The notes: a model not told the origin generated them from the letters alone. Shown: positions 14,172 to 58,289, counted from the first letter of the stretch. The stretch is DNA of 64,000 bases from Planctomycetota bacterium (GCA_021776825.1 JAJFFG010000128.1:353-64352), one strand, 5' to 3'. Translations and numbers: made by a program.

Positions 14172-14200
14172 GCGGGCGCGACGGCGTACGCTCGGGACGG

Positions 14201-18487: not shown

Positions 18488-18961
18488 CTACCAACGGTGA
18501 TACGCCGGGTGCCCCGGCTTCACGGCCACGAACACGCCACGACACGATGCCGTCACCTTGCCGTCGGCCTCGAGCGTCCCCTCGACGGTGGCGCGGTCGG
18601 CCCCAGCCTCGACGACCCGGGCACGAAGCGTCAGTTCCTCGCCGAGCGGCGTGGGGCGCCGCAGCTTGATCGTGTACTCGGCCGTCACGGTGCACGGCGG
18701 CCCGTCCGCGCTGGTCTCCGAATTGGCCGCCGCACGCAGGTGTTCGGCAGCGGTCCAGTTGCAGTGGCAGTCCAGCAGCGCCCCGACGATGCCGCCGTTC
18801 AGCATGCCCGGGAACGCCTGGTGGTGCTCGGCGGCGGTCCAGCGGCAGACGACCTCGTCGCCCTCGACGAAGCTCTTGATGCGCAGGCCGACCTCGTTGG
18901 CCGGTCCGCATCCGAAGCAGGCACTCTGCGGTGCGTAGGTGTCCTGCAGGCTCGTGCTCAT
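18488..18961 (-). CDS. PaaI/4HBT-type hotdog-fold thioesterase
   Basis: ATG at 18961 (MSTSLQ). MLNGGIVGALLD motif. Confidence 0.75.
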   Translation of the reverse strand: MSTSLQDTYAPQSACFGCGPANEVGLRIKSFVEGDEVVCRWTAAEHHQAFPGMLNGGIVGALLDCHCNWTAAEHLRAAANSETSADGPPCTVTAEYTIKLRRPTPLGEELTLRARVVEAGADRATVEGTLEADGKVTASCRGVFVAVKPGHPAYHRW

Positions 18962-19016
18962 GCGCTGTCTCCCGTCGACGCGTAGCATCGCACGCAGCGA
19001 GGAAGGGGCGCGATCG

Positions 19017-19763
19017 ATGAGCGACGGCGGACTGTGGTGGGAGACCTTCTTCGGCGGTCTCTGGCTCGAGGTGCAGCGCGATGCCTTCTGGCACGAGCGT
19101 GCCGACGCTGGAGCGGACTGCGTCGAGAAGGCACTCGGCCTCGAGCCCGGCGCTGCCGTGCTGGACGCGCCGTGCGGTGACGCGCGCATCGGTCGCGCAC
19201 TCGCGGCACGTGGCTACGCGGTCACGGGCATCGACCTCTGCCAGCCGCTCCTCGACGACGCCCAGCGCCTCGCCGACGACGCCGGAGTGGCGATCCGGCT
19301 CGCGCGGCACGACCTACGGGACCTCCCGTACGAGGCCGAGTTCGACGGCGTCGTCTGCTACTGGGGCAGTTTCGGGTACTTCGACGACGTCGGGAACATC
19401 GAGCAAGCCCGCGCGGCGGCGCGCGCGCTGAAGCCTGGTGGCCGCTACCTGATCGACGGGTACGTGGCCGAGTCGCTCCTCCCGAAGTTCGCCGAGCGGA
19501 GCTGGTCGCGCGCCGGTGACATCCTCCTGGCCGAGAAGCGCAACTGGGACGCCCCGCCGGGGCGCGTCGAGACGGAGTGGACGCTGATCCGGGGCGAAGT
19601 CCATGAGACGCGCCACACCTCGATCCGCATCTACACGGTGCGCGAGACGCTGCATCTGCTGGAGTCGGCTGGGTTCGGGGACGTCACGATCTACGGGGAT
19701 CGGGACCTCTCGCCGTTCGAGCTGGGATCGCCGCGCGCGGTCGTCGTCGCCACGAAGGCCTGA
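19017..19763 (+). CDS. Class I SAM-dependent methyltransferase
   Basis: ATG 19017 (MSDGGLWW). Motif I VLDAPCGDARIG, FGYFDD, post-I acidic residues. Paralogous to the MT at 46117..46884. Confidence 0.8.
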   Translation: MSDGGLWWETFFGGLWLEVQRDAFWHERADAGADCVEKALGLEPGAAVLDAPCGDARIGRALAARGYAVTGIDLCQPLLDDAQRLADDAGVAIRLARHDLRDLPYEAEFDGVVCYWGSFGYFDDVGNIEQARAAARALKPGGRYLIDGYVAESLLPKFAERSWSRAGDILLAEKRNWDAPPGRVETEWTLIRGEVHETRHTSIRIYTVRETLHLLESAGFGDVTIYGDRDLSPFELGSPRAVVVATKA

Positions 19764-40352: not shown

Positions 40353-41210
40353 TTGCCGCGCCAGCCCGACTCCGCCCTTGAGAGCTACCTGCGCGAGATT
40401 GGGCAGGTGCCGCTCCTTACCGCCGAGCAGGAGCACCTGCTGGCGATCGAGGTTCGTGACGGCGACCCCGCCGCACGTGAGCGCATGATCCGCTCGAACC
40501 TGCGGCTCGTGGTCTCGATCGCGAAGCGGTACCGACGGCGCGGCCTGACGCTCCTCGATCTGATCGAAGAGGGCAACGTCGGGCTCGTCAAGGGCGTCGA
40601 GCGCTTCGATCCGGATGCCGAGACTCGGTTCAGCACGTACGCCACGTGGTGGATCAAGCAGGCCATCCGACGCGCACTCGTGAACACGGCGAAAACCGTC
40701 CGCGTCCCGTCCTACATGGTCGAGATCATCTCCAACTTCAAGCGCGCCTCCACCCGGTTCGAGGAGGAGCACGGTCGGCCGCCGACCGTCAACGAGGTCG
40801 CGAAGGAGATGGGTTACGACGACTCCAACCTGCGCCTGGTGAAGCGGGCGATCCGCGCCGCGCACAACGATGGCGACGCGATCTCGCTCGAAGCGATCTC
40901 CGAGCAGCGGGACACCCTCGAAGACACGCGAACGAACGCTCCGGACGCCGAGATCCTCGACGACGAGGAGCTGTCGAAGCTGCAGGAACTTCTCGACTCG
41001 ATCGAGCCCCGCGAGGCCGAGATCCTCCGCCTGCGCTTCGGGCTGGACGACGACGGGCCGATGACGCTGCGGGAGATCGGCGAGCGGTTCGGCGTCTCGC
41101 GCGAGCGTGTGCGCCAGATCGAAAGCCGGGCGCTGCGCAAGCTCGAGGCCCGCTTCAGCGGTCGCCGTGGAACCGGTCGCCCTGGAACCCCTCCTGCTGG
41201 AGCGCCGTGA
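40353..41210 (+). CDS. Sigma-70 family RNA polymerase sigma factor (group 2/3-like; regions 2, 3, 4)
   Basis: TTG start. Region 2 RLVVSIAKRY...DLIEEGNVGLVKGVERFD. Region 4 LTLREIGERFGVSRERVRQIESRALRKL. Confidence 0.88.
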   Translation: MPRQPDSALESYLREIGQVPLLTAEQEHLLAIEVRDGDPAARERMIRSNLRLVVSIAKRYRRRGLTLLDLIEEGNVGLVKGVERFDPDAETRFSTYATWWIKQAIRRALVNTAKTVRVPSYMVEIISNFKRASTRFEEEHGRPPTVNEVAKEMGYDDSNLRLVKRAIRAAHNDGDAISLEAISEQRDTLEDTRTNAPDAEILDDEELSKLQELLDSIEPREAEILRLRFGLDDDGPMTLREIGERFGVSRERVRQIESRALRKLEARFSGRRGTGRPGTPPAGAP

Positions 41211-41214
41211 CGAC

Positions 41215-42486
41215 GTGACCGCTGGCCCCGTCGCCGGTGGCGCTGACACCACCCGCCTCGACCCGGTCGGACCGGGCCTCTACGTCCACGTTCCGTTCTG
41301 CGAAGCCCGCTGCAGCTACTGCGACTTCTACGCCGTGGCGCGCGATCAGGCACCGCGCCGCCAGATCGCCGAGGCGCTCGCGGTCGAGGCCGCCGCACGC
41401 ACGCCGACCGACTTCGCCCCCGTCACGACGTTCGTGGGTGGTGGCACGCCGACGGCGCTCACCGACGAGGAGCTCCGCGACGTGTTGGACGTCGTGTCTG
41501 GCGTCGCACAACCGGGAGGTCGGCTCAGCGAGTGGACGGTCGAGTGCAATCCCGGGTCGTTCACGCCGACGAAGGCCCGATTGATGCGGGCGGCGGGGGT
41601 CAATCGCGTCTCCATCGGGGTGCAGAGTTTCGATGATGCCGTGTTGCGATCGGTCGGGCGGGTCCACGACGCCGCGACGGCTCGAGACGCCGTCCGTATC
41701 GCTCGGGACGCAGGGATCGAGCAGGTCTCCGTGGACCTACTCTTCGCTGTTCCCGGGCAGGGGCTGGAGACGTTCCGGCGCGACCTCGACGAGGCCGTGG
41801 TCCTCGGCACAGATCACGTCTCGGCGTACGCGCTGATCTTCGAGCCCGGGACACCGCTGCGCAAGCACCTGGACGCCGGCCGGGTCGTCGCTGAGGACGA
41901 GGTGGTCGAGCTGACGATGATGCGCGTTGCGCGCGAGGTGCTCGCCGCTGCGGGGTTCGAGCGGTACGAGGTCTCCAACTTCGCCCGTCCGGGCTCCGCA
42001 TGCCGTCACAACCTGAACTACTGGCGCAATGGCGAGTACCTCGGGCTCGGGCCATCCGCGGTGAGCTATCTGAACGGCGTCCGGCGCGGCAACGTCGCCG
42101 ACTGGCAGGAGTGGGAGCGGATCGTGCTCAGCGGGGACGATGCGGCGGTGAGCGGTGAGCGGCTCGACCCCACAGGGGCCGCGGCGGAAGAGTTGATGGT
42201 CCGCCTCCGCCTGGCCGAGGGAGCCGACCTCGCGGCGGTCGGGCGCCGCTACGACATCGATGCGGAGGGGACGTTCGGGCCGGTGATGCATCGCTTCCGT
42301 GGCTACGACCTCCTCGCGGAGGACGAAGGGCGGTGGAGCTTCACGGATCAGGGACTCGAGGTGGCCGACGGCGTGCTCGCTGAGATCATCGCCGCGGCCC
42401 GGTGTAACCTTTCGGGGTGCTCGACCGTCCCTCTTCCTGTGGACGCCTCGCGCACGGCGCCCACAACACGGCCGCGCACTCAATGA
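41215..42486 (+). CDS. hemW: Radical SAM HemW/HemN-like protein (heme chaperone / coproporphyrinogen-III-oxidase-like)
   Basis: GTG 4 nt after the sigma factor stop. LYVHVPFCEARCSYCDFY CX3CX2C cluster plus HemN C-terminal domain. Confidence 0.8.
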   Translation: MTAGPVAGGADTTRLDPVGPGLYVHVPFCEARCSYCDFYAVARDQAPRRQIAEALAVEAAARTPTDFAPVTTFVGGGTPTALTDEELRDVLDVVSGVAQPGGRLSEWTVECNPGSFTPTKARLMRAAGVNRVSIGVQSFDDAVLRSVGRVHDAATARDAVRIARDAGIEQVSVDLLFAVPGQGLETFRRDLDEAVVLGTDHVSAYALIFEPGTPLRKHLDAGRVVAEDEVVELTMMRVAREVLAAAGFERYEVSNFARPGSACRHNLNYWRNGEYLGLGPSAVSYLNGVRRGNVADWQEWERIVLSGDDAAVSGERLDPTGAAAEELMVRLRLAEGADLAAVGRRYDIDAEGTFGPVMHRFRGYDLLAEDEGRWSFTDQGLEVADGVLAEIIAAARCNLSGCSTVPLPVDASRTAPTTRPRTQ

Positions 42487-42630
42487 ACCGTCGATTCGCG
42501 ATTCGTCGCCGAACGGCCGTGGAGGTGGCGGCGGGGGAGGGCCCGCTGGGATCGGGTGTGGCGCTCGCTTCGCTGCGGGGGGCGGTGAGGTCCCGGCCGA
42601 GGATGGGGCAGGATGATCGGGCAGGGGGAG

Positions 42631-43839
42631 TCAGGAACTCGCCTGGTCTGGATCTGACGGGCCGGAATCTGACCGGGCCGGGTCTCCCCGGGCCGGGTCT
42701 CCCCGGGCGGGGCCGAGCGGGGCGTCCAGTACCTCGCCGTAGAGCGCTTCGTACTGCGAGACGACGTCCTCTTCCGCGAAGCGGTCGACCGCGCGGCGCC
42801 GAGCCTCGGCGCCCATCGCGCGGCGCCGGGCAGGGTCCTGCAGGAGCGCGATCGAGCGACGGGCAGCGGTCTCGACGTCGCCGACGTCGACCAGCAACCC
42901 GGTGACCTCGTCGTCAACGACCTCCGGCAGCCCACCGGAGCGTGTGCCGAGTACCGGCACGGCGCACGACATCGCCTCCAGCGCAGCGAGACCGAAGGAC
43001 TCGTGGTCGCTCGGCAGGAGAAACAGGTCGGAGCACCCGAGCACCCGCTCGACGGCCTCCTGCTCCCCCAGGAACCTCACGCGCTCGAACACACCCTCGT
43101 CGCGCGCGACCTTCTCCGCGCGCGGGCGTTCGGGGCCATCCCCAGCGAGCACGAGCCGAGCCGGCATCGCGCGGGACACGCGAGCGAAGATGCGGACCAC
43201 GTCGGCCAGTCGCTTCACCGGCCGGAAGTTCGAGACGTGGGCGAGCACGACCTCGTCGTCGGAGCCGAGCCCGCGTCGAGTGTCCACGCAGTCGTGAGGC
43301 CGAAAGCGGTCGGTGTCGACGAAGTTGTGGACGACACGGATCGCGCGGTCGGGTTGGAAGATCCGCAGCGACTCGTCGCGCAGCCAGTTCGACACGGTCG
43401 TCACGGCGTCGCTCGACTCGATGCCGTACCGCGTCGGGTGGAAGTACGCGCCATCCGCGCCAACAATCGTGATGTCGGTCCCGTGCAGCGTGGTGACGAT
43501 GCGCGGACCTCCACCGCCCAGCATGGCACGCGAGAGGATCGCGGAGATCGCGTGCGGGATGGCGTAGTGGACGTGCATCACATCGAGCCGATGCACTTCC
43601 GACACCTCCCGCATCACCGAGGCGAGCGCCAGGTCATACGGCGGGTACCGAAACAGCGGGTACGACGAGACGCGGGCCTCGTGGAACGAGATGTTCGGAT
43701 GGAAGTCCGCGAGCCGGGCGGGGCGCGCGTACGAGAGGAAGTGGACCTCGTGGCCACGATCGGCGAGCGCCACGCCGAGTTGGGTCGCGAGAGCGCCGGA
43801 CCCGCCGTAGGTGGGGTGGCAGCTGATCCCGATGCGCAT
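42631..43839 (-). CDS. bshA: GT4 glycosyltransferase BshA (N-acetyl-alpha-D-glucosaminyl L-malate synthase)
   Basis: MRIGISCHPTYGGSG...RGHEVHF...YPPYDLALASVMREV...HVHYAIPHAI...TTLHGTDITIVG. Colinear with Bacillus BshA (from memory). Confidence 0.8.
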   Translation of the reverse strand: MRIGISCHPTYGGSGALATQLGVALADRGHEVHFLSYARPARLADFHPNISFHEARVSSYPLFRYPPYDLALASVMREVSEVHRLDVMHVHYAIPHAISAILSRAMLGGGGPRIVTTLHGTDITIVGADGAYFHPTRYGIESSDAVTTVSNWLRDESLRIFQPDRAIRVVHNFVDTDRFRPHDCVDTRRGLGSDDEVVLAHVSNFRPVKRLADVVRIFARVSRAMPARLVLAGDGPERPRAEKVARDEGVFERVRFLGEQEAVERVLGCSDLFLLPSDHESFGLAALEAMSCAVPVLGTRSGGLPEVVDDEVTGLLVDVGDVETAARRSIALLQDPARRRAMGAEARRRAVDRFAEEDVVSQYEALYGEVLDAPLGPARGDPARGDPARSDSGPSDPDQASS

Positions 43840-43841
43840 GG

Positions 43842-44582
43842 CTAGAGGGACTCGCCCGGCCGGGCGCCGCGCCCGAGCAGCGCCCGTGGATCGACGATGT
43901 CGAGCGCGCCCCGCGTGACCAACGGTTCGCCGAGCTCGACTCCGGCCAGGCGCCCCCAGACCCGCGCCCGCGCCTCCAGTCGTGGGAGGAAGTCGCCGCG
44001 CGAAATCATCGTGACGAAGTCGTCACCGGCAGCGTCCGTGGGAGATCGGTGCAGTTGGCTCGTGAAGCACTGGGCGAGCGCGATCCGCTCGTCCCAGACG
44101 TCGGTGACATCCATCACGATCGTCGTGGGGGCCTCGTCGTGCATGACGTAGTGCAGCAGTCGATGCGGGCGGTGCGGCTCGCCGTCCGCGGTGACGTTCT
44201 TCATGCCGCTCGGGTAGAACGCCTCCTGCACGACGCGGCCCGCAGCGTCGTGATCGGGGTGCAGGTCCCCGGGCAACGGCGCCAGCACGAGCGTCGGCTG
44301 ATGACGGCGAATGGCCTCGATGACGGCCCGGCGCACGTCGAGCGAGGCCGTCAGCTCCGTGTCGGGAAAGCCGAGCGTCTCTCGCACGGCGAGCCCCATC
44401 ATCGCAGCGGCACGCTCGGCCTCGGCGGCGCGGGTCGCGGCGGTTCCCCGGCTCCCTCGCTCGCCCGCGGTCAGATCGACGACCCCGGTGCGCAGTCCGG
44501 CGTCGCGAAAGCGCAGCATGGTGCCGCCCATGCCGAGCTCCACGTCATCGGGGTGGGCGCCGAACGCCAGCACGTCGAGCAT
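43842..44582 (-). CDS. bshB: LmbE/PIG-L family deacetylase BshB (GlcNAc-malate deacetylase)
   Basis: ATG 44582 overlaps the bshC stop (ATGA). MLDVLAFGAHPDDVELGMGGT zinc-site motif. Confidence 0.75.
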   Translation of the reverse strand: MLDVLAFGAHPDDVELGMGGTMLRFRDAGLRTGVVDLTAGERGSRGTAATRAAEAERAAAMMGLAVRETLGFPDTELTASLDVRRAVIEAIRRHQPTLVLAPLPGDLHPDHDAAGRVVQEAFYPSGMKNVTADGEPHRPHRLLHYVMHDEAPTTIVMDVTDVWDERIALAQCFTSQLHRSPTDAAGDDFVTMISRGDFLPRLEARARVWGRLAGVELGEPLVTRGALDIVDPRALLGRGARPGESL

Positions 44583-46120
44583 CAGATGTCCTCCTCGAAC
44601 AGCAGCACGTGATCGCCGCCGGCAACGGCGTCCTTCAAGCGGTCGAAGAAGGCCATGCCATGGCGCGCGAGCCACGGTAGCGGGGAGAGCGAGCGCTCGG
44701 CGAACGCGCCCCGAGGCCGCAGGCCCGCCAACGCGACGACGCGGCGACGCGTGTCGACGGCGTCCCGGTCCGCCACGGCACGGGACCACGCCTCCGCGTA
44801 CAGATCGAGTTGACGTCCGAGCTCGCGCCGACGCCGGGTCACGGAGGGCGACGGGTCCGACGGGAGCGCGTCGAGCGCGGCGCGCAGGGCGGCGATCTCC
44901 GGCGGGGGAGGGGGCCGCGAGGGCAGCGCCGCCGTCCCGTGACGAACGACCGCCTCCGGCTCGACCTCGAGTCGGCGACACGCCCGCTCTACATCACGAT
45001 CGACCAGCGTCGCGCCGGGACGCAGGAGCGCCGCCGGCTGCGGGACGCCGAGCAAGTCGTGCGCCTCCCGGAGGAGCGACACGTACCCGAGCTCCGCTGG
45101 GCCGCAGACCTGCGCGGCGACCGGCAGCGCCAGGTCCTGCGCCAGTGCACGCGTGACGACGTTCCATGAGACGGCGGTCGGGTCGGCCGCAAGACGCTCC
45201 CGCAGACGGTCGGCATGGCCCGTCGTGCCGTCCTCGGCAACCAGATCGCCGTCCCTCACGTCGAAGCGCCGGCGCACGCCATCTTGCACCTCGAACACGA
45301 GCGCGCGGCGCGCGAGGGAGAGCGCGGGTGGGTACCCGGCTGCCAGCACTCGCTCCTGAGCCCGCCCGACCGAGTCGAACAGCGCGCCAGGAGAACGAAG
45401 CTCGAACTCGGCGACAGCACGGGCGGCGCTGCGAAGCGTCGATGGCTCCACGACGACGACACCCAGGGCGCCGAGATGGGCGGCGAGGTAGCGTCCGGTC
45501 CACGATCCGAATGTGTCGCCGTCGCGCGGCCGGAGCATCGCGAGGGCGAGGTCAGCCCGCTCCCCGAGCAGCTCCGATGCAGCCTCCATCACTCCGGCGA
45601 GGTCCTGTGGCAACGGCGTGTCCGCCAGCATCCGACGGCCGCCGGGAAGTGATACCTGGAGCCTGTGGAGCTCGGCGCCGTCCCGGATCAGAACGTGGTT
45701 GGCTTCGGCATGATCGTCATCTTCGGATGCGTGCCAGAACACCGGCACCGCGGGGATGCCCGCGGCCTCGAGGCGCTCGCATGCCGCGAGTGCGCCAAGC
45801 GCCTTCACGAGCACCATCAAGGCGCCCCCGAGCAGTCCTGGCTGCTGGCCCGTCACGACCGTCACGACGCCCGGCTCGCGAAGACGCTCCGCGGACGCGA
45901 ACGCCGCGGGGGGCGCCTCGAGCCGACGGAGACCACCCGAGATCGCATCGACGAGGGCCGCGCGAGGGAGCTCGCGTTGGGCCGCCAGGCGTGCGGACGC
46001 CAGCAACCCCGCGTCGTCGACGGAGTGGGTCAGAAGCCCCGCCAACGCCGGATCTCCCTCGACCAGCCCGCGCGCGAGCCCTCCGACGGGGAGCAGGTCC
46101 GACCACGGGATGCGCTTCAT
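44582..46120 (-). CDS. bshC: Bacillithiol biosynthesis cysteine-adding enzyme BshC
   Basis: ATG 46120 (MKRIPWSDLLP). TGQQPGLLGGALMVLVKAL...AVPVFWHASEDDDHAEANHV and WNVVTRALAQDLALPVAAQVCGPAELGY are colinear with Bacillus BshC/YllA motifs. Confidence 0.8.
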   Translation of the reverse strand: MKRIPWSDLLPVGGLARGLVEGDPALAGLLTHSVDDAGLLASARLAAQRELPRAALVDAISGGLRRLEAPPAAFASAERLREPGVVTVVTGQQPGLLGGALMVLVKALGALAACERLEAAGIPAVPVFWHASEDDDHAEANHVLIRDGAELHRLQVSLPGGRRMLADTPLPQDLAGVMEAASELLGERADLALAMLRPRDGDTFGSWTGRYLAAHLGALGVVVVEPSTLRSAARAVAEFELRSPGALFDSVGRAQERVLAAGYPPALSLARRALVFEVQDGVRRRFDVRDGDLVAEDGTTGHADRLRERLAADPTAVSWNVVTRALAQDLALPVAAQVCGPAELGYVSLLREAHDLLGVPQPAALLRPGATLVDRDVERACRRLEVEPEAVVRHGTAALPSRPPPPPEIAALRAALDALPSDPSPSVTRRRRELGRQLDLYAEAWSRAVADRDAVDTRRRVVALAGLRPRGAFAERSLSPLPWLARHGMAFFDRLKDAVAGGDHVLLFEEDI

Positions 46121-46884
46121 GCGGCTCTCCCGACCAGCACCGTACGAGGAGCCTCCGAGCTCCACGTCACACCGGCCAGGTCGCCATGCACCGAGACGAC
46201 CTCGAGCCCGGCGGATCGGAACAGAGACTCGAGCTCCTCGCGTGCATACAGGCGAACGGACTCGCGCCATGTCCGTGGGGGGGCGTGGCGCGTCTGCAGC
46301 CGGACGTCCTTCTCGACGCGTCCGTCGCGAATTGCGCGGACCTCGACGATGCGGTTGCCCGCCAACTCGCGCTCCGATCGGGGCACCAACGTGGCGCGGA
46401 CCCGATCGGCGTTGAGGAAGTCGAGGACCAGGTGGCCGCCGGGAGCAAGAACGCGTCGTGCCTCGGCCAGTTGCGCGCTGTTCTCCGCGTCGTCGAAGTA
46501 GCCGAACGTGGTGAACAACGAGGCGACGCCCACGAAGCAGCCGTCCACAAACGGCAGGCGCCGCAGATCCCCACGGACGTACGCGGGGCACTCCGTGACT
46601 GCCTGAGGCGGTCCGGCATGGCCGACGGCGGACCGCAGCAGATCGAGGCTCAGATCGAAGCCGACGACGCGCACGCCCCGCGCCGAGAGCGCGCGCGTGT
46701 GCCGGCCGGCGCCACAGCCCGCGTCCAGAACGAGCCCACCCGGCGGCGCAGCGAGCGCGTCGACGACGAACTCGATCTCGGCGGCGGCGGCCGCGTCACT
46801 ACGGTGCGCGTAGACCTCGAGGTACTCCGCCCGGAACGCCTCGGCGAACCACGGCCCAGGGTCGCCCTCGGCGCCTTCGCTCAT
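46117..46884 (-). CDS. Class I SAM-dependent methyltransferase embedded in the bsh operon (candidate N-methyl-bacillithiol methyltransferase)
   Basis: ATG 46884 overlaps the pyrF stop. Motif I LVLDAGCGAGRHT, FGYFDD. Paralog of the MT at 19017. Confidence 0.75.
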   Translation of the reverse strand: MSEGAEGDPGPWFAEAFRAEYLEVYAHRSDAAAAAEIEFVVDALAAPPGGLVLDAGCGAGRHTRALSARGVRVVGFDLSLDLLRSAVGHAGPPQAVTECPAYVRGDLRRLPFVDGCFVGVASLFTTFGYFDDAENSAQLAEARRVLAPGGHLVLDFLNADRVRATLVPRSERELAGNRIVEVRAIRDGRVEKDVRLQTRHAPPRTWRESVRLYAREELESLFRSAGLEVVSVHGDLAGVTWSSEAPRTVLVGRAA

Positions 46885-47804
46885 GCCGTCTCCGGCGCCG
46901 CCACAGCCCGCAGCGCGTCGCGCATCTCGACCGCCGCCGCGTGGACCGAGTCGCGCCACCGGGCGTCGCCGAACCGCTCCGCGTGGTCGCCCTTCCGGAA
47001 CGCGAACGAGATCCCGCGCGAGGAGTTCACGACGGCGCCGAGGCCGTTCGCCCCGAAGCCCGCGCGGCAGTCCTCGGCGCCGCCGCCCTGCGCTCCGTAT
47101 CCGGGCACCAGCAGCGGCGTGCGGGGCATGAGTGCGCGCAGGCACGCCAGCTCCTCGGGGTACGTGGCGCCGACGACGGCGCCGACGGCCGTCCAGCCGT
47201 CCTCATCCAAGGGTGTCTCGTCACCGATGTCGCGCACGGCGGCGGCGACCCGTTCATGCAGTGGGGCCTGCCCGCCGTGGTCGTCGACCGTCTGCCGACC
47301 CTGGAAGTCCGCCGACCCGGGGTTGCTCGTCTTGACCAGCACGTAGATGCCCTTCCCCGCGTCGCGACATCGGTCAAGGAAGGGTGCGAGGGTGTCCAGG
47401 CCGAGGTACGCATTGACCGTCAGCGCATCCGCTTCGACCACATCGAAGTGAGCCTGAGCGTAGGCCTCGGCAGTGCTCCCGATGTCGCCGCGCTTCGCAT
47501 CGGCGATCACGAGCAGCCCGCGCTCCCGCGCCGCTGCGACCGTGCGCTGGTAGGCGCGGACTCCGGCCCACCCCTCCGCCTCGAAGAACGCCACCTGGGG
47601 CTTCACCACCGGAGCCAGCGGCGCGACCACATCGAGAAGCTCGCGAGCCCAGAGCTCGATCGCCTCCGCGCGGGCCTCGGCGGAGCCCTCGCGGCCGGTT
47701 GTGAACTCAGTCGGAAGCATGGCGAAGCGGGGGTCGATGCCGACACAGACGGCAGAGCCCTTCTCGCGGGTGGCGGCATGGAGTCGGGCGGCGTAGCTCG
47801 TCAC
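46881..47804 (-). CDS. pyrF: Orotidine 5'-phosphate decarboxylase (type 2, long form)
   Basis: GTG start overlaps the upstream stop (GTGA). VCVGIDPRF...KPQVAFFE...VIADAKRGDIGST motifs. Confidence 0.8.
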   Translation of the reverse strand: MTSYAARLHAATREKGSAVCVGIDPRFAMLPTEFTTGREGSAEARAEAIELWARELLDVVAPLAPVVKPQVAFFEAEGWAGVRAYQRTVAAARERGLLVIADAKRGDIGSTAEAYAQAHFDVVEADALTVNAYLGLDTLAPFLDRCRDAGKGIYVLVKTSNPGSADFQGRQTVDDHGGQAPLHERVAAAVRDIGDETPLDEDGWTAVGAVVGATYPEELACLRALMPRTPLLVPGYGAQGGGAEDCRAGFGANGLGAVVNSSRGISFAFRKGDHAERFGDARWRDSVHAAAVEMRDALRAVAAPETA

Positions 47805-48517
47805 GTGATCTCTCCGGGGGCGTCGGCGGGTGGGGGAATGACCGTCTGTGGGGGGATGACTGCCTGTGGGGGGATGACAGCCTGTGAGGGGATGACTGGG
47901 GTTCCGAGGCTGGCGGGGGTCGGACGTTCCCGCGCGGCGTGCTCGAGGAAGCGCGCGAGGAGGGCGGGGCCGTCAGGGGTCATGAACGACTCGGGATGGA
48001 ACTGCACTCCCGTGATCGGGAGCTCGCGGTGGCGGAGAGCCATCAACTCGGGGGCTGCCGAACCCGCACGCTCGGTCCACGCGCAGCGCTCCAGGCATGC
48101 TGGGAGGGGCTCCTCGACCACGAGCGAGTGGTATCGCATGGCGGTCAACGGTTGCGGCAGCCCGGCGAACAGGCCGCGACCGTCGTGATGGACCTCGCTC
48201 GTCTTGCCGTGCAGGAGTCGGTCGGCGGCGGCGACTCGCCCCCCGAACGCCACGCCGATCGCCTGATGACCGAGGCAGACGCCCAGCAGCGGGAGGCGCG
48301 CGGCGGCGGCGGCGCGCACCAGGTCGACGGAGATCCCAGCCTCCGCGGGCGTGCAGGGTCCCGGCGAGAGGAGGATCGCATCCGGGGCCTCGGCGAGCGC
48401 GGCGGGCACGTCCACGGCATCGTTGCGATGCACGACAACGGCGGCACCCAGGGACCTCAACGCTTGGACGAGGTTGTAGGAGAACGAGTCGTAGTTATCG
48501 ACGAGCAGGACGCGCAC
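47801..48517 (-). CDS. Class I glutamine amidotransferase (anthranilate/aminodeoxychorismate synthase component II, TrpG/PabA) with a C-terminal (A/T)VIPPQ repeat tail
   Basis: MRVLLVDNYDSFSYNLVQ...GVCLGHQ...GVQFHPES catalytic triad context. Tail VIPSQAVIPPQAVIPPQTVIPP. Confidence 0.8.
   Translation of the reverse strand: MRVLLVDNYDSFSYNLVQALRSLGAAVVVHRNDAVDVPAALAEAPDAILLSPGPCTPAEAGISVDLVRAAAAARLPLLGVCLGHQAIGVAFGGRVAAADRLLHGKTSEVHHDGRGLFAGLPQPLTAMRYHSLVVEEPLPACLERCAWTERAGSAAPELMALRHRELPITGVQFHPESFMTPDGPALLARFLEHAARERPTPASLGTPVIPSQAVIPPQAVIPPQTVIPPPADAPGEIT
47815..47905. repeat. About 21-bp tandem repeats (ctgtggggggatgac.gc) x4, encoding the VIPPQ tail
   Basis: gaccgtctgtggggggatgactgcctgtggggggatgacagcctgtgaggggatgactgg. 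Confidence 0.7.
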
Positions 48518-48556
48518 CGGCGCCGAGCATACGCCGCAAGGGTGGCGAGCCGGTGT

Positions 48557-50725
48557 TTATCGCGGCGCCGCGACGCGGGTCGGGAGCATCAGTGCGAACA
48601 CGCTTCCGGCCTTCGCGCCGGGCTCGTACCAGACCGTGCCGCCGAGTCGCTCGATCGCCAGGCGGGCCGTCGGCAGGCCGAGACCGAGGCCGGTCGGCTT
48701 GTCGGTGAGGATGTCCCCGAGCTGCTTGAACTTCTCGAAGATCACCGGCCGCAACGTCTCCGGCACGCCGGAGCCGGTATCCGCGATGGCGACGACGGCG
48801 GATTCCGACTCCGCGTAGATCGTGACGTGCACCTCACCGTCAGCCGGGCTGAACTTCGCCGCATTCGAGAGAAGGGCATCGAGCGCCTTGGCGAGCCAGC
48901 GATGGTCTGCCACGGCGGCCGGCATGCCCTCATCCACCCGCACGCGCACCTTGACGCCGCGCTCCTTGAACGCCGGCCGCTGGCGCCTGTACGCCTCGGC
49001 GAGCGCGTCGCGCAGGTCGACGTCCTCGAGCTGGAGCTCGAGGCGGCCGGACTCGAGGACGGACAGGTCGATGACGGACTGCAGGGTCTGCGTCAGGCGC
49101 CCGGACTCCTGCTGGATGATGGCGGCGAACTCCGCGCGGTCCGTGGCGGAGGCCGCGCCGTCATCGGCCGCGGTCGTCCCCAGGATCTCGGCGAACCCAT
49201 TGATCGACGTCAGGGGCGTCATCAGCTCGTGGCTCATCGACGCCAGGAAGTCGTCCTTCATGCGGTCGAGCTGCTTCAGCTCGCGGTTGGCCTGCTCCAG
49301 CTCCTGCGTGCGCTCGGCGACCGTGCGCTCCAGCTCGCGATTGAAGCCCTCGATCCGGCTGTAGAGCCGGACGTTCTCGATGGCGACCGCGGCCTGCGCG
49401 GCGACGGCACCCAGGAAGCGGAGCCGATCGTCACTCTCTGCTCCGCGCGCGCGAACCAGAAGGTAGGCGGTGAGCGCGCCGAGCACCTCGCCCTGGTGCA
49501 CAAGGGGAGCGACCAGCGCGGCCAACGGCCCGGGCTCGTCGACGCCAGGTGGCTGTAGGAGCGCCGGGTCCTCGGACGCCGTGATCATGAACGGATCACC
49601 GGCCAGAACGCGCTGCACGAGCGCCGGCTCGGCACCGCCGCGACGCGCGATCGGGTCCTGAGAGAACCCGCGAACGAGTCGCTCCTCGAGGCGTCCGCCG
49701 TCGCGGTCGAGGAGCAGCACGCTCCCGTGCGTGGTGCCCACCGTCTTGGTCGCCTGTTCGAGAACCCGCTCGAGGAGCCGGTCGCTGTCGAGCTCACTGG
49801 CGATGACGACGCCCGTCGCATGCAGCCCAGCGAGGTGATTGACGTGATCGGAGAGTTGGGTGCGCGTCTCGTTCAACTCGGTGAGCAGTCGAGCGGACTC
49901 CATGTTCGTCTCGACGGCCCGCTCGAGGAGTTCCTCGACGTCGGGCACCTCCTGCTCACCCGTGACGGTGGCCACCTCGATGACCGCCGGTCGGCGCGCG
50001 GTGAAGGCCGCCGCCCCGGCCAGCGAGTGGGGCGCGGGGACGTCGGCGGGATGGGCGCCGCCGAGGCGCTCGTAGTCCTCGCGGAACTCGCCGAAGCGCT
50101 CTGCGACGTTCGCCGCGAGCACCGTCGGGTCGGCCAGGCGATGCTCTGTAGCCAGCCGCACCAGCATGTCGCCGGTGAGACTCGAGAACGCCTCGAAGAC
50201 ACCCTCACCCGTCGTCGCGATGGTCGCGATGTCCGACACGCCGGCCGGGTTCAACGCCTCGCGTAGGTGCTCGACCGGGACCGGCGCGGGGACGTCGCGC
50301 TTGTTGTACTGAATGAAGATCGGCACGATCCGGCGGTCGATGCCGTTCACCTCGAGGTTCTCCTCGAGGTTGCGCAGCGCCACGATGTTGTCCTCGAAGG
50401 CTTCCGGGCGTGAGTCGGCGACGAAGATGATCCCGTCGGCGCCGCGCAGCACGTAGCGACGGGTGAGCGCGTACTTGACCTGGCCGGGCACGGTGAACGC
50501 CTGCAGCTTCACGTGGAAGCCGCCCAGGGACCCGAGCGGGATCGGCAGGAAGTCGAAGAACAGGGTCCGGTCGCCCTGGGTGTTCAGCGAGACGAGCTCG
50601 GTGCGGCCCTGCGGATCGATCACGCGGTGCACGTGCTTCAGGCTGGTGGTCTTGCCTGACAGCGCCGTGCCGTAGTAGACGATCTTCGCGTTGATCGTCC
50701 GGTCCCGCAGATTGATGAGGCTCAT
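48557..50725 (-). CDS. Fusion protein: MglA-like Ras-superfamily GTPase domain + GAF domain + histidine kinase (HisKA + HATPase_c)
   Basis: ATG 50725 (MSLINLRDRTINAKIVYYGTALSGKTTS). G1 GTALSGKTT, switch I TDRTLFFDF, G3 YTVPGQ, G4 QYNKRD, collinear with M. xanthus MglA. Then GAF (GSVLLLDRDGG...VLGALTAYL), H-box SMSHELMTPL, N/G boxes LLSNAAKFS...IADTGSGV...GLGLGL. Confidence 0.8.
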   Translation of the reverse strand: MSLINLRDRTINAKIVYYGTALSGKTTSLKHVHRVIDPQGRTELVSLNTQGDRTLFFDFLPIPLGSLGGFHVKLQAFTVPGQVKYALTRRYVLRGADGIIFVADSRPEAFEDNIVALRNLEENLEVNGIDRRIVPIFIQYNKRDVPAPVPVEHLREALNPAGVSDIATIATTGEGVFEAFSSLTGDMLVRLATEHRLADPTVLAANVAERFGEFREDYERLGGAHPADVPAPHSLAGAAAFTARRPAVIEVATVTGEQEVPDVEELLERAVETNMESARLLTELNETRTQLSDHVNHLAGLHATGVVIASELDSDRLLERVLEQATKTVGTTHGSVLLLDRDGGRLEERLVRGFSQDPIARRGGAEPALVQRVLAGDPFMITASEDPALLQPPGVDEPGPLAALVAPLVHQGEVLGALTAYLLVRARGAESDDRLRFLGAVAAQAAVAIENVRLYSRIEGFNRELERTVAERTQELEQANRELKQLDRMKDDFLASMSHELMTPLTSINGFAEILGTTAADDGAASATDRAEFAAIIQQESGRLTQTLQSVIDLSVLESGRLELQLEDVDLRDALAEAYRRQRPAFKERGVKVRVRVDEGMPAAVADHRWLAKALDALLSNAAKFSPADGEVHVTIYAESESAVVAIADTGSGVPETLRPVIFEKFKQLGDILTDKPTGLGLGLPTARLAIERLGGTVWYEPGAKAGSVFALMLPTRVAAPR

Positions 50726-50824
50726 GAGTTCTCGTAGGTCTGGTACCCGGGGCGGCGAAGACACCACCTCGGTTCCATATCGAGACGGCACCCACTCGCG
50801 CTTGAGGCGCGGCGAGGACCCCCG

Positions 50825-52018
50825 ATGAGCACCACGCCCGCGCGAGAGCGCTACCTGGACCACAACGCCTCTGCTCCGCTGCTCCCCGAGGCTCGCGAAG
50901 CGCTCCTGCGGTCGCTCGAGCTCGGTCCAGGAAACCCGTCGAGCGCGCACGCGGCCGGTCGGCGGCTGCGGAGCGCACTGGAGTGTGCCCGGGAGGAGAT
51001 CGCCGAGCTCGTCGGCGCCGACCCTCGCCAAGTGGTTCTGACCTCCGGCACAACGGAGTCCAACGTCCTGGGGGTCCGTGGTGCGCTCGGCGCCCATCCC
51101 GGCCCCGGTCGCGGACTCGTGACGACCGCCGCCGCCCACGCGTCGCTCCGTCAGCTCGCGGACCGTCTCGCGCTGGAGGGCGTGCCCGTCCAGGAGGTGG
51201 GCGTCAGCCCGACGTTCCGGCACGATCCGGACGACATCGGGCGGGCAGCGCGTGGAGCGGCGGTCGTGGCGTTGACGCTCGCGGAGTCGGTCACCGGCAC
51301 CCTGCAGCCAGTCACCGAGTCCGCGGCGCGGGCGCGGGCGGCCGGAGCACGGGTCCACGTCGACGCGGCACAGGCCGTGGGCCGCCTCCCCGTCTCGCTC
51401 GCCAGCACCGGAGCGGACCTACTCGCCATCTCCTCCCACAAGATCGGCGGCCCGGCCGGGATCGGCGCGCTCATCGTCGCCAATGACGTTCCGATCGCCA
51501 GTCCGGCGGGTCTCGGCGCACAGGAGCGGGGACGTCGACCAGGAACGGAGTCGGTGGCGCTGGCCGCCGCCTTTGGCGCCGCCGCGCGCGTCGTCGCGGC
51601 GCGCCGAGACGAGTCCGCGCGACATACTCGAGACGTCCTCGCGCCACTGCGTGACTACGTCGACGTCGCACCGGGGGCCGCGTGGTGCACACCCCGCGAC
51701 GCGCTGCCGAACACGGCGCTCATCACATTCGCCGGGTGTCCGGGGGAGGCCATCCTCGCCGCACTCGATGGACGCGGAATCCGGGTCTCCACGGGATCGG
51801 CGTGCGCCAGCGGAGCGCGCACTGCGCCACACGTGCTGCTCGCCGCGGGGTGGACGGCTGCGCGGGCGAGCGAAGCTGTGCGCGTCTCTGTCGGGTGGAG
51901 CACGCAGCGCGAGGACGTCACGGCGTTGGTCGGTGCGTTGCGCGATGTCACGGCGACGGTGCGCGGTGCGTTCGCCGTCGCCGACGTCGGCCCCGAAAAA
52001 AGTTTGCCAAATCCATGA
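50825..52018 (+). CDS. Cysteine desulfurase (IscS/NifS, class V aminotransferase)
   Basis: SSHKIGGPAGIGALIV PLP-lysine motif, TSGTTESN. Divergent from the GTPase-HK gene. Confidence 0.88.
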   Translation: MSTTPARERYLDHNASAPLLPEAREALLRSLELGPGNPSSAHAAGRRLRSALECAREEIAELVGADPRQVVLTSGTTESNVLGVRGALGAHPGPGRGLVTTAAAHASLRQLADRLALEGVPVQEVGVSPTFRHDPDDIGRAARGAAVVALTLAESVTGTLQPVTESAARARAAGARVHVDAAQAVGRLPVSLASTGADLLAISSHKIGGPAGIGALIVANDVPIASPAGLGAQERGRRPGTESVALAAAFGAAARVVAARRDESARHTRDVLAPLRDYVDVAPGAAWCTPRDALPNTALITFAGCPGEAILAALDGRGIRVSTGSACASGARTAPHVLLAAGWTAARASEAVRVSVGWSTQREDVTALVGALRDVTATVRGAFAVADVGPEKSLPNP

Positions 52019-52228
52019 CGTCCGAAGAGGCGCGATCTCGCTGAGATGCAGGGTTCATCTAGGTGTTGGGCGAATCGCATCTCTCTCGTGCGCCCTTTGA
52101 CACCGCTCGTCGTGTGGCTATATTTGTCCTTCCCCAACGCGGTGGCGCACAGCGACTCCGGCAGGAAGGCGCGGCGCGGAACGGGCTCCATCGCGAGTGA
52201 TCGTGATGCTCATTTGGCGGCTTGAGGT

Positions 52229-53761
52229 ATGTCCCGATTCGAAGTGCAATGCACTCCGTCTCGTGACGCAACGCGACAGCCCGACAACGGTTCGGGCGGC
52301 GGGAGGAACGCTGGGCGAATGGCGGGTGAGAACGCCGGCACCGGCTCTGGTCGCACGATCCTCGAGATCGTCCGCGAGCGCGTCTCGCGGCAGCAGTTCC
52401 AGACCTGGTTCCGTGACCTCGATCTGTCGCGCATCGACGGCAAGACGTATGTCTTCTCCGCGCCGAACGCGTTCGTGAAGCAGTGGATCGAGAGCTACTA
52501 CCTCGACGCCTTGCGTGACGCGGTCGAGGCGACGGCTGGCATGCCCCACGATGTCCGCGTGGACGTCGGTGATGACGCTCTTCCCACGCCGGCTGAGCGC
52601 CGCGAGCGGCGTCCTCGCGCCGAAGCGGCGCCAGCGACCCCCGTCCGCCCGGCCATCCCGGCGGCGCCCCGCATCACCACCCGTCGCCACGGCGCCGAAC
52701 TCTTCGGGCACCCCCGCTATCGTCACTTCCTGTCGGACGTGATCCTGAACGACGACTACGTCTTCGAGAACTTCGTCGTCGGGCCGAGTAATCACCTCGC
52801 CCACGCCGCGTCGAGCGCCGTCGCGAACGCGCCGGGTGACGCCTACAACCCGCTCTTCCTGCACGGCGCCGTCGGCCTCGGTAAGACACACCTGCTCCAG
52901 GCGCTCTGCCACCGCGTCCTCTCGAAGCGCCCCGACGCGAAGATCATCTACCTCTCCTGCGAGTCGTTCGTGAACCAGTTCATCGCCGGCGTCGCGGAGG
53001 GGGGTCTCCAGGACTTCCGCTACCGCTACCGGCACGTGGACATGCTGCTGATCGACGACATCCACTTCCTCGCGCGGAAGGAGCGGACGCAGGAGGAGTT
53101 CTTCCACACGTTCAACACGCTCTACAACTCGAAGAAGCAGATCATCCTGTCGTGCGACAGCCCGCCACGGGAGATCCCGACGCTCGAGGACCGCCTCGTC
53201 AGCCGGTTCAAGTGGGGCCTGGTCACCCAGATCCTCGAGCCGGACCACGAGACGCGTGTGTCGATCGTGCGACAGAAGGCCCAGCGTCGCGGCTACGAGT
53301 TGCCGGACGACGTGACCGACCTCATCGCGGACCACATCACCGCCAATGTCCGAGAGCTCGAGGGTGCGGTCCTCCGCGTCTCGAGTTACGCCTCGCTCTC
53401 CGGTCGCCCGCTCACGCTCGAGCTGGCGCGGGAGGCTCTGCGCGACCTGATTCAGCCGAAGACGCGCAAGGTCACGATCGAGACCATCATCCGTGTCACG
53501 TCCGAGCACTTCGGTGTGAAGCCGTCCGAGATGATGGGCAAGCGGCGACACAAGTCGATCTCGCGCCCGCGTCAGATGGCGATGTACCTCGCCCGCCGCA
53601 TGACGGATCACTCGCTCGTCGAGATCGGGGCTCACTTCGGTGGCCGTGACCACACCACGGTCATCTACGCGAACGAGAAGATCGCGCGCGAACTCGAGAC
53701 GCTTCCTCGCCTGAAGGAAGACCTCGAGATCGTCATCCGCCGGATTCGCGCGGGAGAGTAG
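52229..53761 (+). CDS. dnaA: Chromosomal replication initiator DnaA
   Basis: AAA+ GAVGLGKTHLLQA, LLIDDIHFL, C-terminal DNA-binding domain RPRQMAMYLAR. Confidence 0.97.
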   Translation: MSRFEVQCTPSRDATRQPDNGSGGGRNAGRMAGENAGTGSGRTILEIVRERVSRQQFQTWFRDLDLSRIDGKTYVFSAPNAFVKQWIESYYLDALRDAVEATAGMPHDVRVDVGDDALPTPAERRERRPRAEAAPATPVRPAIPAAPRITTRRHGAELFGHPRYRHFLSDVILNDDYVFENFVVGPSNHLAHAASSAVANAPGDAYNPLFLHGAVGLGKTHLLQALCHRVLSKRPDAKIIYLSCESFVNQFIAGVAEGGLQDFRYRYRHVDMLLIDDIHFLARKERTQEEFFHTFNTLYNSKKQIILSCDSPPREIPTLEDRLVSRFKWGLVTQILEPDHETRVSIVRQKAQRRGYELPDDVTDLIADHITANVRELEGAVLRVSSYASLSGRPLTLELAREALRDLIQPKTRKVTIETIIRVTSEHFGVKPSEMMGKRRHKSISRPRQMAMYLARRMTDHSLVEIGAHFGGRDHTTVIYANEKIARELETLPRLKEDLEIVIRRIRAGE

Positions 53762-54214
53762 TGGTCAAGGCCCCAGTCGCCCGCGTCGGTCGACGCGGGC
53801 GGTATGGCGCCTTCCACCGGCGACGCCACAAAGTTATCCACCACGTAAGTCAATCCGATAGAGCGACTTACGTGTCCTTCTCGAGCACCGACCCCACCAT
53901 GTCTCCACCGGTCACGGACACGTTGTGCCCGGCGCCGCCCGCGACGGCTTCCGCCCTGTGGGAAGTGTCTTCGGAAGGGTCTTTGGGGCTGGGTAGAATC
54001 GTCCATCTGTCCACAGGCGTGACGCGCCCTCGCCAACTCTCGGTCAAGTCGGCACAGTTCGTCCGCTTGCCTTCCACCGTGGACAACTCGGTGGAGAAAC
54101 GGATCGGGGGCACGGGTCTGGCCTCGTGTCGCCTCTCTGAGCACTGTGGATCCCCAACATCCACCGACCATATGAATACGATTACAGAACAAGAACCCCT
54201 CATAGGAGGGGCTC
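53762..54214. promoter_or_regulatory. oriC: Candidate oriC (dnaA-dnaN intergenic) with several DnaA-box-like 9-mers and a locally AT-richer stretch next to dnaN
   Basis: TTATCCACC (about 53833), CTGTCCACA (about 54017), TTGTCCACG on the minus strand (about 54080), TGTGGATCC (about 54140). catatgaatacgattacagaacaagaa is the most AT-rich 27-mer in the region. Confidence 0.6.
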
Positions 54215-55336
54215 GTGGAGAGAACTCAGATGCGCTTTACCTGTGATCGCGATGATCTCCTGAAGGCAGTCCAGTCGGTGTCGGGTGTCGTGGCGAGTAA
54301 GGGCGTCCACCCCGTCTACGAGAGCGTTCAGATCACCGCCGAAAACGATGCCCTCACGCTCTCAGCCACTGATCTGGAGATCGGCATGCGTGTGCATGTC
54401 GGCCCAGGCGAGTCGCTCCGCATCGAGCGACCGGGCACCGCGGTTGTGCCGGCCCAGCGTCTGGGCGCCATCTGCCGCGAGCTCTCCAAGGGCGAGCTGA
54501 TCTTCGACTGGGACGCCGAGCGTCGCGAGTGCACGCTGCAGGCGGGAAGGGGACGCTTCCAACTGCAGGGCCCCTCGCCCGAGGACTTCCCGGAGATCCC
54601 GGACGTCGGCGGAGCCGAGGAGGTCGCGATCAACGCGGGCGTGCTGCGCCAGATGATCAAGCGCACTGCGTTCGCGGCGGCCAAGGAGCGGATGCGCTTC
54701 GCGCTGAACGGACTGCTCCTGAAGGTGGAAGGGGAGTCCCTCGAACTCGTCGCCACCGATGGACGACGCCTGGCGGTGGACCAGGGAGCGTGCACGAACC
54801 CCGGCGGTGTCTCACTGCGCGCGATCGTTCCGACGAAGGGCCTGCAGCAGTTGGACAAGGCGCTGAGTGATCCCGCCTCGAGCGTCTGGATCTCGATCGG
54901 CAACAACCACTTCCGCGGCCGTACCGAACGAGTCACGGTGGTCTCGCGTCTCGTCGAGGGAAGCTTCCCTGGCTACAAGGAAGTCATCCCCGCGAACTGC
55001 TCGCACGGAGCGACCATTCCGCGCGACGAGTTGGTCTCCACGTTGCGCCGAGCGTCGCTCGTGACGAGTCGTGACGCCCAATGTGTGCGCCTGCGCTTCC
55101 ATACTGAGGGCCTGACGGTGTCTGCGCGCTCCGCCGAGGGTTCGGCCGAGGAGACGCTTTCGTGCGCGTACGAGGGCGAGGAGGAGCTGCTGGGGTTCAA
55201 CCCGGACTTCCTCCTCGAGGCGCTCGCCGTCCTGCCCGCCGGAGACATCGCGTTCGCATGGAACGGCAAGGCCTCTCCGGGCAAGATCACGGAGGGGTCG
55301 TACACGTACGTTGTGATGCCCGTCAGCATCGAGTGA
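54215..55336 (+). CDS. dnaN: DNA polymerase III beta sliding clamp
   Basis: GTG 54215 (alternative ATG 54230). MRFTCDRDDLLKAVQSV. Three-domain clamp. Confidence 0.95.
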   Translation: MERTQMRFTCDRDDLLKAVQSVSGVVASKGVHPVYESVQITAENDALTLSATDLEIGMRVHVGPGESLRIERPGTAVVPAQRLGAICRELSKGELIFDWDAERRECTLQAGRGRFQLQGPSPEDFPEIPDVGGAEEVAINAGVLRQMIKRTAFAAAKERMRFALNGLLLKVEGESLELVATDGRRLAVDQGACTNPGGVSLRAIVPTKGLQQLDKALSDPASSVWISIGNNHFRGRTERVTVVSRLVEGSFPGYKEVIPANCSHGATIPRDELVSTLRRASLVTSRDAQCVRLRFHTEGLTVSARSAEGSAEETLSCAYEGEEELLGFNPDFLLEALAVLPAGDIAFAWNGKASPGKITEGSYTYVVMPVSIE

Positions 55337-55434
55337 GTGCCGCCCACGGGGGTGGTGGCGGTGGAGCGCCTGGCCATGGCGGGCGTCGCCGCGGGGGTGA
55401 TCCGGAGTCGCTCCAGAACATCCTCTCGCGGGTC

Positions 55435-58289
<2,855 letters not shown>

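Follow-up and report, generated by a model that had tools for sequence, protein, structure and literature searches.

A compact six-gene unit predicted to encode the route to N-methyl-bacillithiol in a Planctomycetota bacterium

N-methyl-bacillithiol (N-Me-BSH), a methylated form of a protective thiol, and the gene nmbA were defined by Hiras et al. in 2018, in a study that placed the Planctomycetes among the lineages without a predicted low-molecular-weight thiol (PMC6282198). According to Hammerstad et al. (2025), 3,842 RefSeq species have the full bacillithiol (BSH) pathway and 1,765 of these also carry NmbA (PMC12719100), and the cultured Planctomycetota Engelhardtia mirabilis and Saltatorellus ferox have NmbA, BshA, BshB and BshC (PMC12719100, Supplementary Dataset 1). 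The enzymes of Chlorobaculum tepidum (CtNmbA) and Paenibacillus polymyxa were shown to N-methylate reduced BSH in vitro, and PDB entry 9RI2 is the crystal structure of CtNmbA (PMC12719100). A clustering of nmbA with bsh genes is not discussed in the parts of PMC6282198 and PMC12719100 that a keyword search covered. Here we have analysed a stretch of 64,000 nucleotides from a Planctomycetota bacterium (GCA_021776825.1, JAJFFG010000128.1:353-64352), hereafter the window, in which positions 42631-48517 of the minus strand are filled by six co-directional genes. We consider it likely that this locus is a compact operon encoding the full known route to N-Me-BSH. The window has a G+C content of about 70%, and the six genes are, from the upstream end:

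47801..48517, minus strand: trpG/pabA-type glutamine amidotransferase, 238 amino acids, GTG start (TIGR00566, PF00117)
46881..47804, minus strand: pyrF, orotidine-5'-phosphate decarboxylase type 2, 307 amino acids, GTG start (TIGR02127)
46117..46884, minus strand: nmbA candidate, class I S-adenosylmethionine (SAM)-dependent methyltransferase, 255 amino acids (match to PDB 9RI2)
44582..46120, minus strand: bshC, putative cysteine-adding enzyme of bacillithiol synthesis, divergent, 512 amino acids (TIGR03998, PF10079)
43842..44582, minus strand: bshB, BshB1-type GlcNAc-malate deacetylase, 246 amino acids (TIGR04001, PF02585)
42631..43839, minus strand: bshA, N-acetyl-alpha-D-glucosaminyl L-malate synthase of the GT4 type, 402 amino acids (TIGR03999)

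A chain of six genes at 42631-48517 had been proposed in a first-pass annotation of the window, and all six open reading frames (ORFs) proved real at these coordinates. Their start codons are well supported, since independent gene calls in a protein collection gave identical lengths for the methyltransferase (255), BshC (512) and BshA (402), and since the hidden Markov model (HMM) alignments of TrpG, PyrF, BshB and BshA begin at residues 1-5. The same annotation had described every junction as an ATGA or GTGA overlap. Read directly in the sequence, this holds for trpG/pyrF (GTGA), pyrF/methyltransferase (ATGA) and methyltransferase/bshC (ATGA), each with a 4-nt overlap, and fails for bshC/bshB, where the stop (44584-44582) and the ATG (44582-44580) share a single nucleotide in TGATG. 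The bshA gene follows bshB after a 2-nt gap (TAG-CC-ATG), in agreement with the 2-3 nt given earlier. The starts of pyrF, the methyltransferase gene, bshC and bshB are preceded at 5-7 nt by GGAG-type Shine-Dalgarno-like motifs, and a promoter and terminator scan of 42000-52300 gave no terminator-like or sigma-70-like site inside the unit above shuffle expectation.

For comparison, 81 related loci were collected by scanning one genome per species and adding the locus L001. Of 51 related loci, 31 allow a 4-nt overlap between the methyltransferase gene and bshC and five others one of 1 nt, both counts being biased upwards because the script takes the candidate start nearest the stop and so favours tight junctions. 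Overlaps at the remaining junctions vary among close relatives; L001, for example, has a 22-nt gap between pyrF and the methyltransferase gene and an 83-nt gap between bshC and bshB. The overlaps, the 2-nt gap and the GGAG motifs together make translational coupling across the unit likely, and such coupling would hold the enzymes in fixed proportion. However, obligatory co-translation, as previously claimed, is an overstatement, as the compactness is only partly conserved and the junctions differ in relatives; tight coupling is plausible.

The first two enzymes of the pathway scored above the thresholds of their families. BshA reached 503.7 bits against TIGR03999 (cut-off 273.7), with residues 1-371 on profile positions 1-374 of 375, and has the Glyco_transf_4 and Glycos_transf_1 domains (Pfam) of the GT4 two-domain architecture. 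BshB reached 242.7 bits against TIGR04001, the BshB1 model (cut-off 182.5), and 98 bits against PF02585 (PIG-L), and its residues 7-17 read FGAHPDDVELG, holding the metal-binding AHPDD motif. From family membership, BshA would couple UDP-N-acetylglucosamine (UDP-GlcNAc) with L-malate, BshB1 would deacetylate the product to glucosaminyl-malate (GlcN-malate) and BshC would attach cysteine to give BSH, after which the NmbA-family methyltransferase would use SAM to place a methyl group onto the cysteine amino group of reduced BSH, yielding N-Me-BSH. Relative to these reactions, the genes run backwards (nmbA-bshC-bshB-bshA). BshA also ends in a C-terminal tail of GDPAR repeats, encoded by an in-frame tandem repeat (15 nt, about four copies) at 42650-42712; the homologue in L001 is shorter (379 amino acids), which suggests that it has no such tail.

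The methyltransferase was compared with all PDB sequences (phmmer), and the top match was 9RI2 with 110 bits (E 1.2e-30), followed by a runner-up at 44 bits. Residues 10-253 align to residues 14-260 of 9RI2, a coverage of approximately 95%, and BLASTP against CtNmbA (266 amino acids) gave 34.5% identity over 249 amino acids, spanning query residues 12-253 of 255. The published definition of an NmbA ortholog asks for E<=1e-20, similar length, >80% coverage and >25% identity with respect to CtNmbA (PMC12719100), and the methyltransferase lies within these limits, the E-values here having been obtained on a database smaller than the RefSeq one searched in that study. Identity to Paenibacillus homologues is 37-44%. 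The SAM-binding motifs I-III are present: motif I, VLDAGCGAG, is aligned with VLDIACGAG of 9RI2, and further motif pairs (FDLS/NDLS, RGDLR/RQDMR and FGYFD/FGYFE) follow along the alignment; the aromatic pair in FGYF is the equivalent of Y134/F135 of CtNmbA and is conserved. No methyltransferase model of NCBIfam reached its cut-off for this protein, the best giving 61 bits against 155. By its sequence, the protein is thus an NmbA-family enzyme, predicted to carry out SAM-dependent N-methylation of BSH, and the nmbA candidate co-occurs with bshA, bshB and bshC, all four in one unit.

The window holds a second methyltransferase gene, a paralog of the first, which the first-pass annotation had already described as divergent from a thioesterase gene:

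19017-19763, plus strand: paralog methyltransferase, 35% identical to the methyltransferase of the operon
18488-19189, minus strand: 4HBT thioesterase ORF, divergent from the paralog

Two HMMs were built, one from the bshC-adjacent methyltransferases of the related loci, with the window methyltransferase left out, and one from the paralog's family. On the first and second model, respectively, CtNmbA scored 232 and 160 bits, the window methyltransferase 275 and 145 bits, and the paralog 145 and 336 bits. A neighbour-joining tree of 56 sequences, with a single sister family as outgroup, split the paralog family from all other sequences in 100 of 100 bootstraps. On the other side of the split stood CtNmbA, the Paenibacillus and Bacteroidota homologues, the bshC-adjacent methyltransferases and the window methyltransferase, the latter grouping with L001-L003 in 99 of 100 bootstraps. 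An embedded methyltransferase of NmbA type, as originally proposed, is therefore borne out by the best match to 9RI2, the ortholog thresholds and the placement in the NmbA clade, and neither the HMM scores nor the tree placed the protein among unrelated methyltransferases of the ubiquinone/menaquinone type.

One could argue that it is the paralog that methylates bacillithiol, in place of the operon enzyme or alongside it, adding for instance a second methyl group, as NmbA can add a methyl group to a secondary amine in vitro and the paralog, besides its 35% identity to the operon enzyme, also finds CtNmbA 9RI2 as its best PDB match (89 bits, E 2.3e-24, near full length, 32% identity). We regard this as highly improbable. 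Its strong preference for the sister-family HMM and the complete bootstrap split speak against it, and its homologues form a large separate family whose named members come from metagenome-assembled genomes (MAGs) of Actinomycetota and Binatia. Moreover, the paralog lacks the conserved GxGRH of motif I, having CGDARIG there, and it never adjoins bsh genes in the three contexts inspected, namely the window, L082 and L083. As a second NmbA it was rejected because of its profile scores, its place in the tree and its gene context: the gene and its divergent 4HBT neighbour are real, but it represents a distinct sister family without bsh linkage. Around the paralog lie an ABC transporter, two ORFs of about 580-600 amino acids without Pfam match and a multihaem cytochrome protein, and this neighbourhood is conserved in L082.

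Gene context was then compared across phyla. In 52 of the 81 loci, bshC is directly preceded, on the same strand, by a methyltransferase homologue, and these loci carry the labels of at least eight phyla: Planctomycetota, Gemmatimonadota, Acidobacteriota, Chloroflexota, Latescibacterota, Lentisphaerota, Hydrogenedentota and Fibrobacterota. In many linked loci bshB and bshA follow bshC, and the full order nmbA-bshC-bshB-bshA was seen in loci labelled Acidobacteriota/Thermoanaerobaculia, Chloroflexota, Lentisphaerota and Fibrobacterota. The Gemmatimonadota-labelled loci (L004, L012, L018, L019, L026 and others) show the nmbA-bshC pair only, often with overlapping stop and start, and bshB and bshA were not within the fetched flank. 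No linkage of the methyltransferase gene with bshC was found in the Paenibacillus and Bacteroidota loci. Adjacency of nmbA and bshC is thus common across phyla and not unusual. The linkage in so many phyla gives independent genomic-context support for the NmbA assignment.

The complete order trpG-pyrF-methyltransferase-bshC-bshB-bshA recurs in L001, L003, L006 and L017; L002 keeps it up to bshB, where the contig ends, and L011 conserves it in part. All those of these loci that bear a label are labelled Planctomycetota, and L001 also has the downstream HemN-like, sigma-factor and sugar-transferase genes. The GyrB protein of the window groups tightly with uncultured relatives, at 63-74% identity, and identity falls to 54% or less outside this group; among its members are the contigs of L002 and L003, of which one is named 'Planctomycetes bacterium'. 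A Myxococcota origin, which had been implied before, found no support in any search, and the syntenic relatives and the nearest named GyrB come from MAGs labelled Planctomycetota or Planctomycetes.

Several points weigh against the prediction that this unit makes N-Me-BSH, and the first of them concern BshC. It scored 217 bits against TIGR03998, under the NCBIfam equivalog cut-off of 265.8, covering only profile positions 19-399 of 529, and its C-terminal coiled-coil (PF24850) is weak (E 2.9e-4, under the gathering score). Moreover, for no BshC, that of Bacillus included, has the reaction been reconstituted in vitro (PMC5790435). As to the methyltransferase, the Foldseek E-values of its AlphaFold2 model against 9RI2 (3e-20), CcbJ (1.5e-19) and CypM (2e-19) are nearly level, and a shift of substrate is possible since identity to CtNmbA is only 34.5%. 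The window also carries the second NmbA-like gene at 19017-19763; we infer co-transcription and translational coupling from spacing alone; and production of BSH or N-Me-BSH, although well predicted, is unproven.

With regard to BshC, the low TIGR03998 score stands next to 161 bits against PF10079, the Rossmann-like BshC domain (cut-off 27), and a sole sequence match in the PDB, B. subtilis BshC 4WBD (E 1.8e-22), and we therefore consider it divergent but recognisable. It matches BshC families only (NCBIfam, Pfam and PDB), contains the motifs TGQQPGLLGG and VFWHASEDDDHAEANHV, and its gene adjoins bshB and bshA here and in many surveyed loci. BshC is thus a divergent yet recognisable member of its family with a putative cysteine-adding activity. 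The profile searches agree with the BshA, BshB and BshC assignments originally made from motifs, BshC not falling in a different family, and the quoted motifs AHPDDVELG (BshB) and GQQPGLL (BshC) were found in the sequence.

The predicted structure was of little help in judging the methyltransferase. The AlphaFold2 model is of high confidence (predicted local distance difference test, pLDDT, 93.9) and its top Foldseek match in the PDB is 9RI2; the margin over CcbJ and CypM is negligible, so that the fold does not discriminate NmbA. Fold comparison was accordingly dropped as a criterion, CcbJ, CypM and other N-/C-methyltransferases with a four-strand cap scoring almost alike. In the NmbA crystal the cap domain has a narrow 'molecular basket' topology, and AlphaFold is reported to mis-model this cap (PMC12719100).

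In an alternative reading, the cluster makes plain BSH only and the methyltransferase is merely co-located, acting on another amine, a small molecule or a BSH conjugate. The modest identity to a validated NmbA would fit such a view, as would a predicted fold that resembles CcbJ, CypM and other natural-product methyltransferases just as closely. According to published work, most Myxococcota, Deinococcota and Acidobacteriota with the BSH pathway lack NmbA, so BSH without methylation is common. In contrast, no other solved methyltransferase came near the score of CtNmbA (44 versus 110 bits), the protein nests in a clade that also takes in CtNmbA and homologues from Paenibacillus, the genus in which the other validated NmbA is found, and its gene adjoins bshC on the same strand, often overlapping, in 52 loci of at least eight phyla. 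We thus find it unlikely that the pathway stops at BSH. With BshA and BshB1 over their cut-offs, a family match for BshC and a methyltransferase of the NmbA clade, the reading of the locus as an N-Me-BSH operon, already put forward by the first-pass annotation, is supported, and production of the thiol remains a prediction.

The two upstream genes of the unit score as ordinary members of their families. TrpG/PabA reached 217.7 bits against TIGR00566 trpG_papA (subfamily cut-off 121) and 184.6 bits against PF00117 (GATase), and its best equivalog model gave 246.6 bits against a cut-off of 308; no equivalog model passed its cut-off, and the protein may serve either TrpE, in anthranilate synthase, or PabB, in aminodeoxychorismate synthase. 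PyrF reached 274.7 bits against TIGR02127 pyrF_sub2 (equivalog cut-off 110.6). The C-terminal tail of TrpG consists of lineage-specific (V/A)IPPQ(A/T) repeats, encoded by an in-frame tandem repeat (18 nt, 3.7 copies) at 47830-47896; the TrpG homologue of L001 is shorter (204 amino acids), suggesting that the repeat tail is missing there.

Could the TrpG-type amidotransferase, PyrF or both have a hand in making the thiol, perhaps by supplying a partner that BshC lacks? For BshC an additional protein may be needed, and its reconstitution possibly fails for want of a partner protein or a cofactor (PMC5790435). The trpG gene lies upstream of pyrF in L001-L003, L006 and L017, and in these loci the order trpG-pyrF-nmbA-bshCBA is conserved with overlapping junctions. 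On the other hand, apart from the ordinary scores of both proteins, in none of the other sampled phyla do their genes stand in the neighbourhood of nmbA-bshC. Clustering of the flanking ORFs of at least 90 amino acids within 3.5 kb in the 52 linked loci gave no additional partner conserved across phyla, yielding only Gemmatimonadota-specific synteny mixed with high-GC shadow ORFs. Furthermore, B. subtilis makes BSH without any linkage to trpG or pyrF. We therefore judge a thiol role of either protein extremely unlikely. Both appear to be housekeeping genes placed in the same transcription unit in the Planctomycetota-labelled clade, with no evidence of a role in thiol synthesis. The presence of pyrF and an amidotransferase in the unit had been called unusual, and the arrangement is a conserved one in the clade labelled Planctomycetota, with no evidence of a functional link.

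A related idea is that the overlap of nmbA and bshC reflects a physical or kinetic partnership of NmbA and BshC, in this clade perhaps extending to the TrpG-type amidotransferase. We hold this to be quite improbable; if true, compact operons of this kind would supply the context of the 'missing protein or cofactor' for reconstitution of BshC.

Outside the six genes, the following neighbours were recorded:

41107-42486, plus strand: HemN-like gene, which converges on bshA and ends the unit
48557..50725, minus strand: fusion of an MglA-type GTPase with GAF, HisKA and HATPase_c domains, one continuous ORF ending 39 nt before trpG
52229-53761: dnaA
54215-55336: dnaN
55710-58289: gyrB

The MglA-GAF-histidine kinase gene may be co-transcribed with trpG, and the fusion lies upstream of trpG as one continuous match in L001-L003. 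Its MglA domain is full-length, matching MglA of M. xanthus and T. thermophilus with E 2e-52 and carrying the TVPGQ and NKRD motifs. A 2014 survey of prokaryotic Ras-superfamily small GTPases (PMC4316618) defines the family as single-domain proteins, and its passages found by keyword mention histidine kinases solely as separate genes beside MglA homologues. A stand-alone MglA-like gene, 40% identical to the window MglA domain, lies just upstream of nmbA-bshC-bshB-bshA in a Thermoanaerobaculia MAG (L081, 6227-6871), which may be a coincidence.

The bsh unit stands beside a likely replication origin region (51358-58289) that holds dnaA, dnaN and gyrB, and L001 shares this origin-proximal arrangement. 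G+C falls to 0.65 at 52-54 kb, and a sigma-70-like promoter with an 11/12 match at 52097-52124 (plus strand), before dnaA, was the sole strong site in the 42000-52300 scan. About 30 other genes of the window were annotated with Pfam, some stretches lying outside this annotation, and within these 64 kb of the genome no bacillithiol disulfide reductase, bacilliredoxin or S-transferase type was found among them. The regions 5214-6758, 12534-15850 and 25275-28208 encode several large proteins rich in CarboxypepD_reg and Ig-like domains, as well as a 977-amino-acid protein combining multihaem cytochrome c motifs with LVIVD repeats.

For a deep uncultured lineage labelled Planctomycetota, the locus allows the main redox-buffer thiol to be predicted with confidence and in a testable form, and the six genes, as a single unit, would lend themselves to use as a cassette for making N-Me-BSH in a foreign host and for trying to reconstitute BshC. 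As the pathway, the enzyme family and their broad distribution (1,765 species, two Planctomycetota) are already published, the gain is incremental, and the locus is an ordinary further example of a known pathway.

Compared with C. tepidum, the four enzyme families are in common, but there the genes have widely separated locus tags (bshA CT0548, bshB CT1419, bshC CT1558 and nmbA CT1040), whereas the window has one head-to-tail overlapping unit joined to pyrF and trpG; at the protein level, the methyltransferases share 34.5% identity and the window BshC is divergent and under the NCBIfam cut-off. The cultured Planctomycetota producers carry the same phylum label as the syntenic MAGs of the window, whose closest relatives are uncultured only. 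The homologue of the methyltransferase in Engelhardtia mirabilis is 39% identical to the window enzyme and does not lie beside bsh genes, its neighbours being an acyl-CoA dehydrogenase and a MauG-like peroxidase. Bacillus subtilis has the same BshA, BshB1 and BshC families and the same order of reactions, with bshA and bshB1 in the mgsA-bshB1-bshA operon and bshC at a separate locus, transcribed with panE; Bacillus is without nmbA and makes unmethylated BSH, whereas the window has all steps and the methyltransferase in one unit. A like layout is found in MAG clusters of Acidobacteriota, Gemmatimonadota, Chloroflexota and others, in which nmbA lies immediately 5' of bshC, often with an ATGA or GTGA overlap, as in the window. 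Among the surveyed nmbA-bshC clusters, trpG, pyrF and the MglA-GAF-histidine kinase gene upstream are found in the Planctomycetota-labelled clade only.

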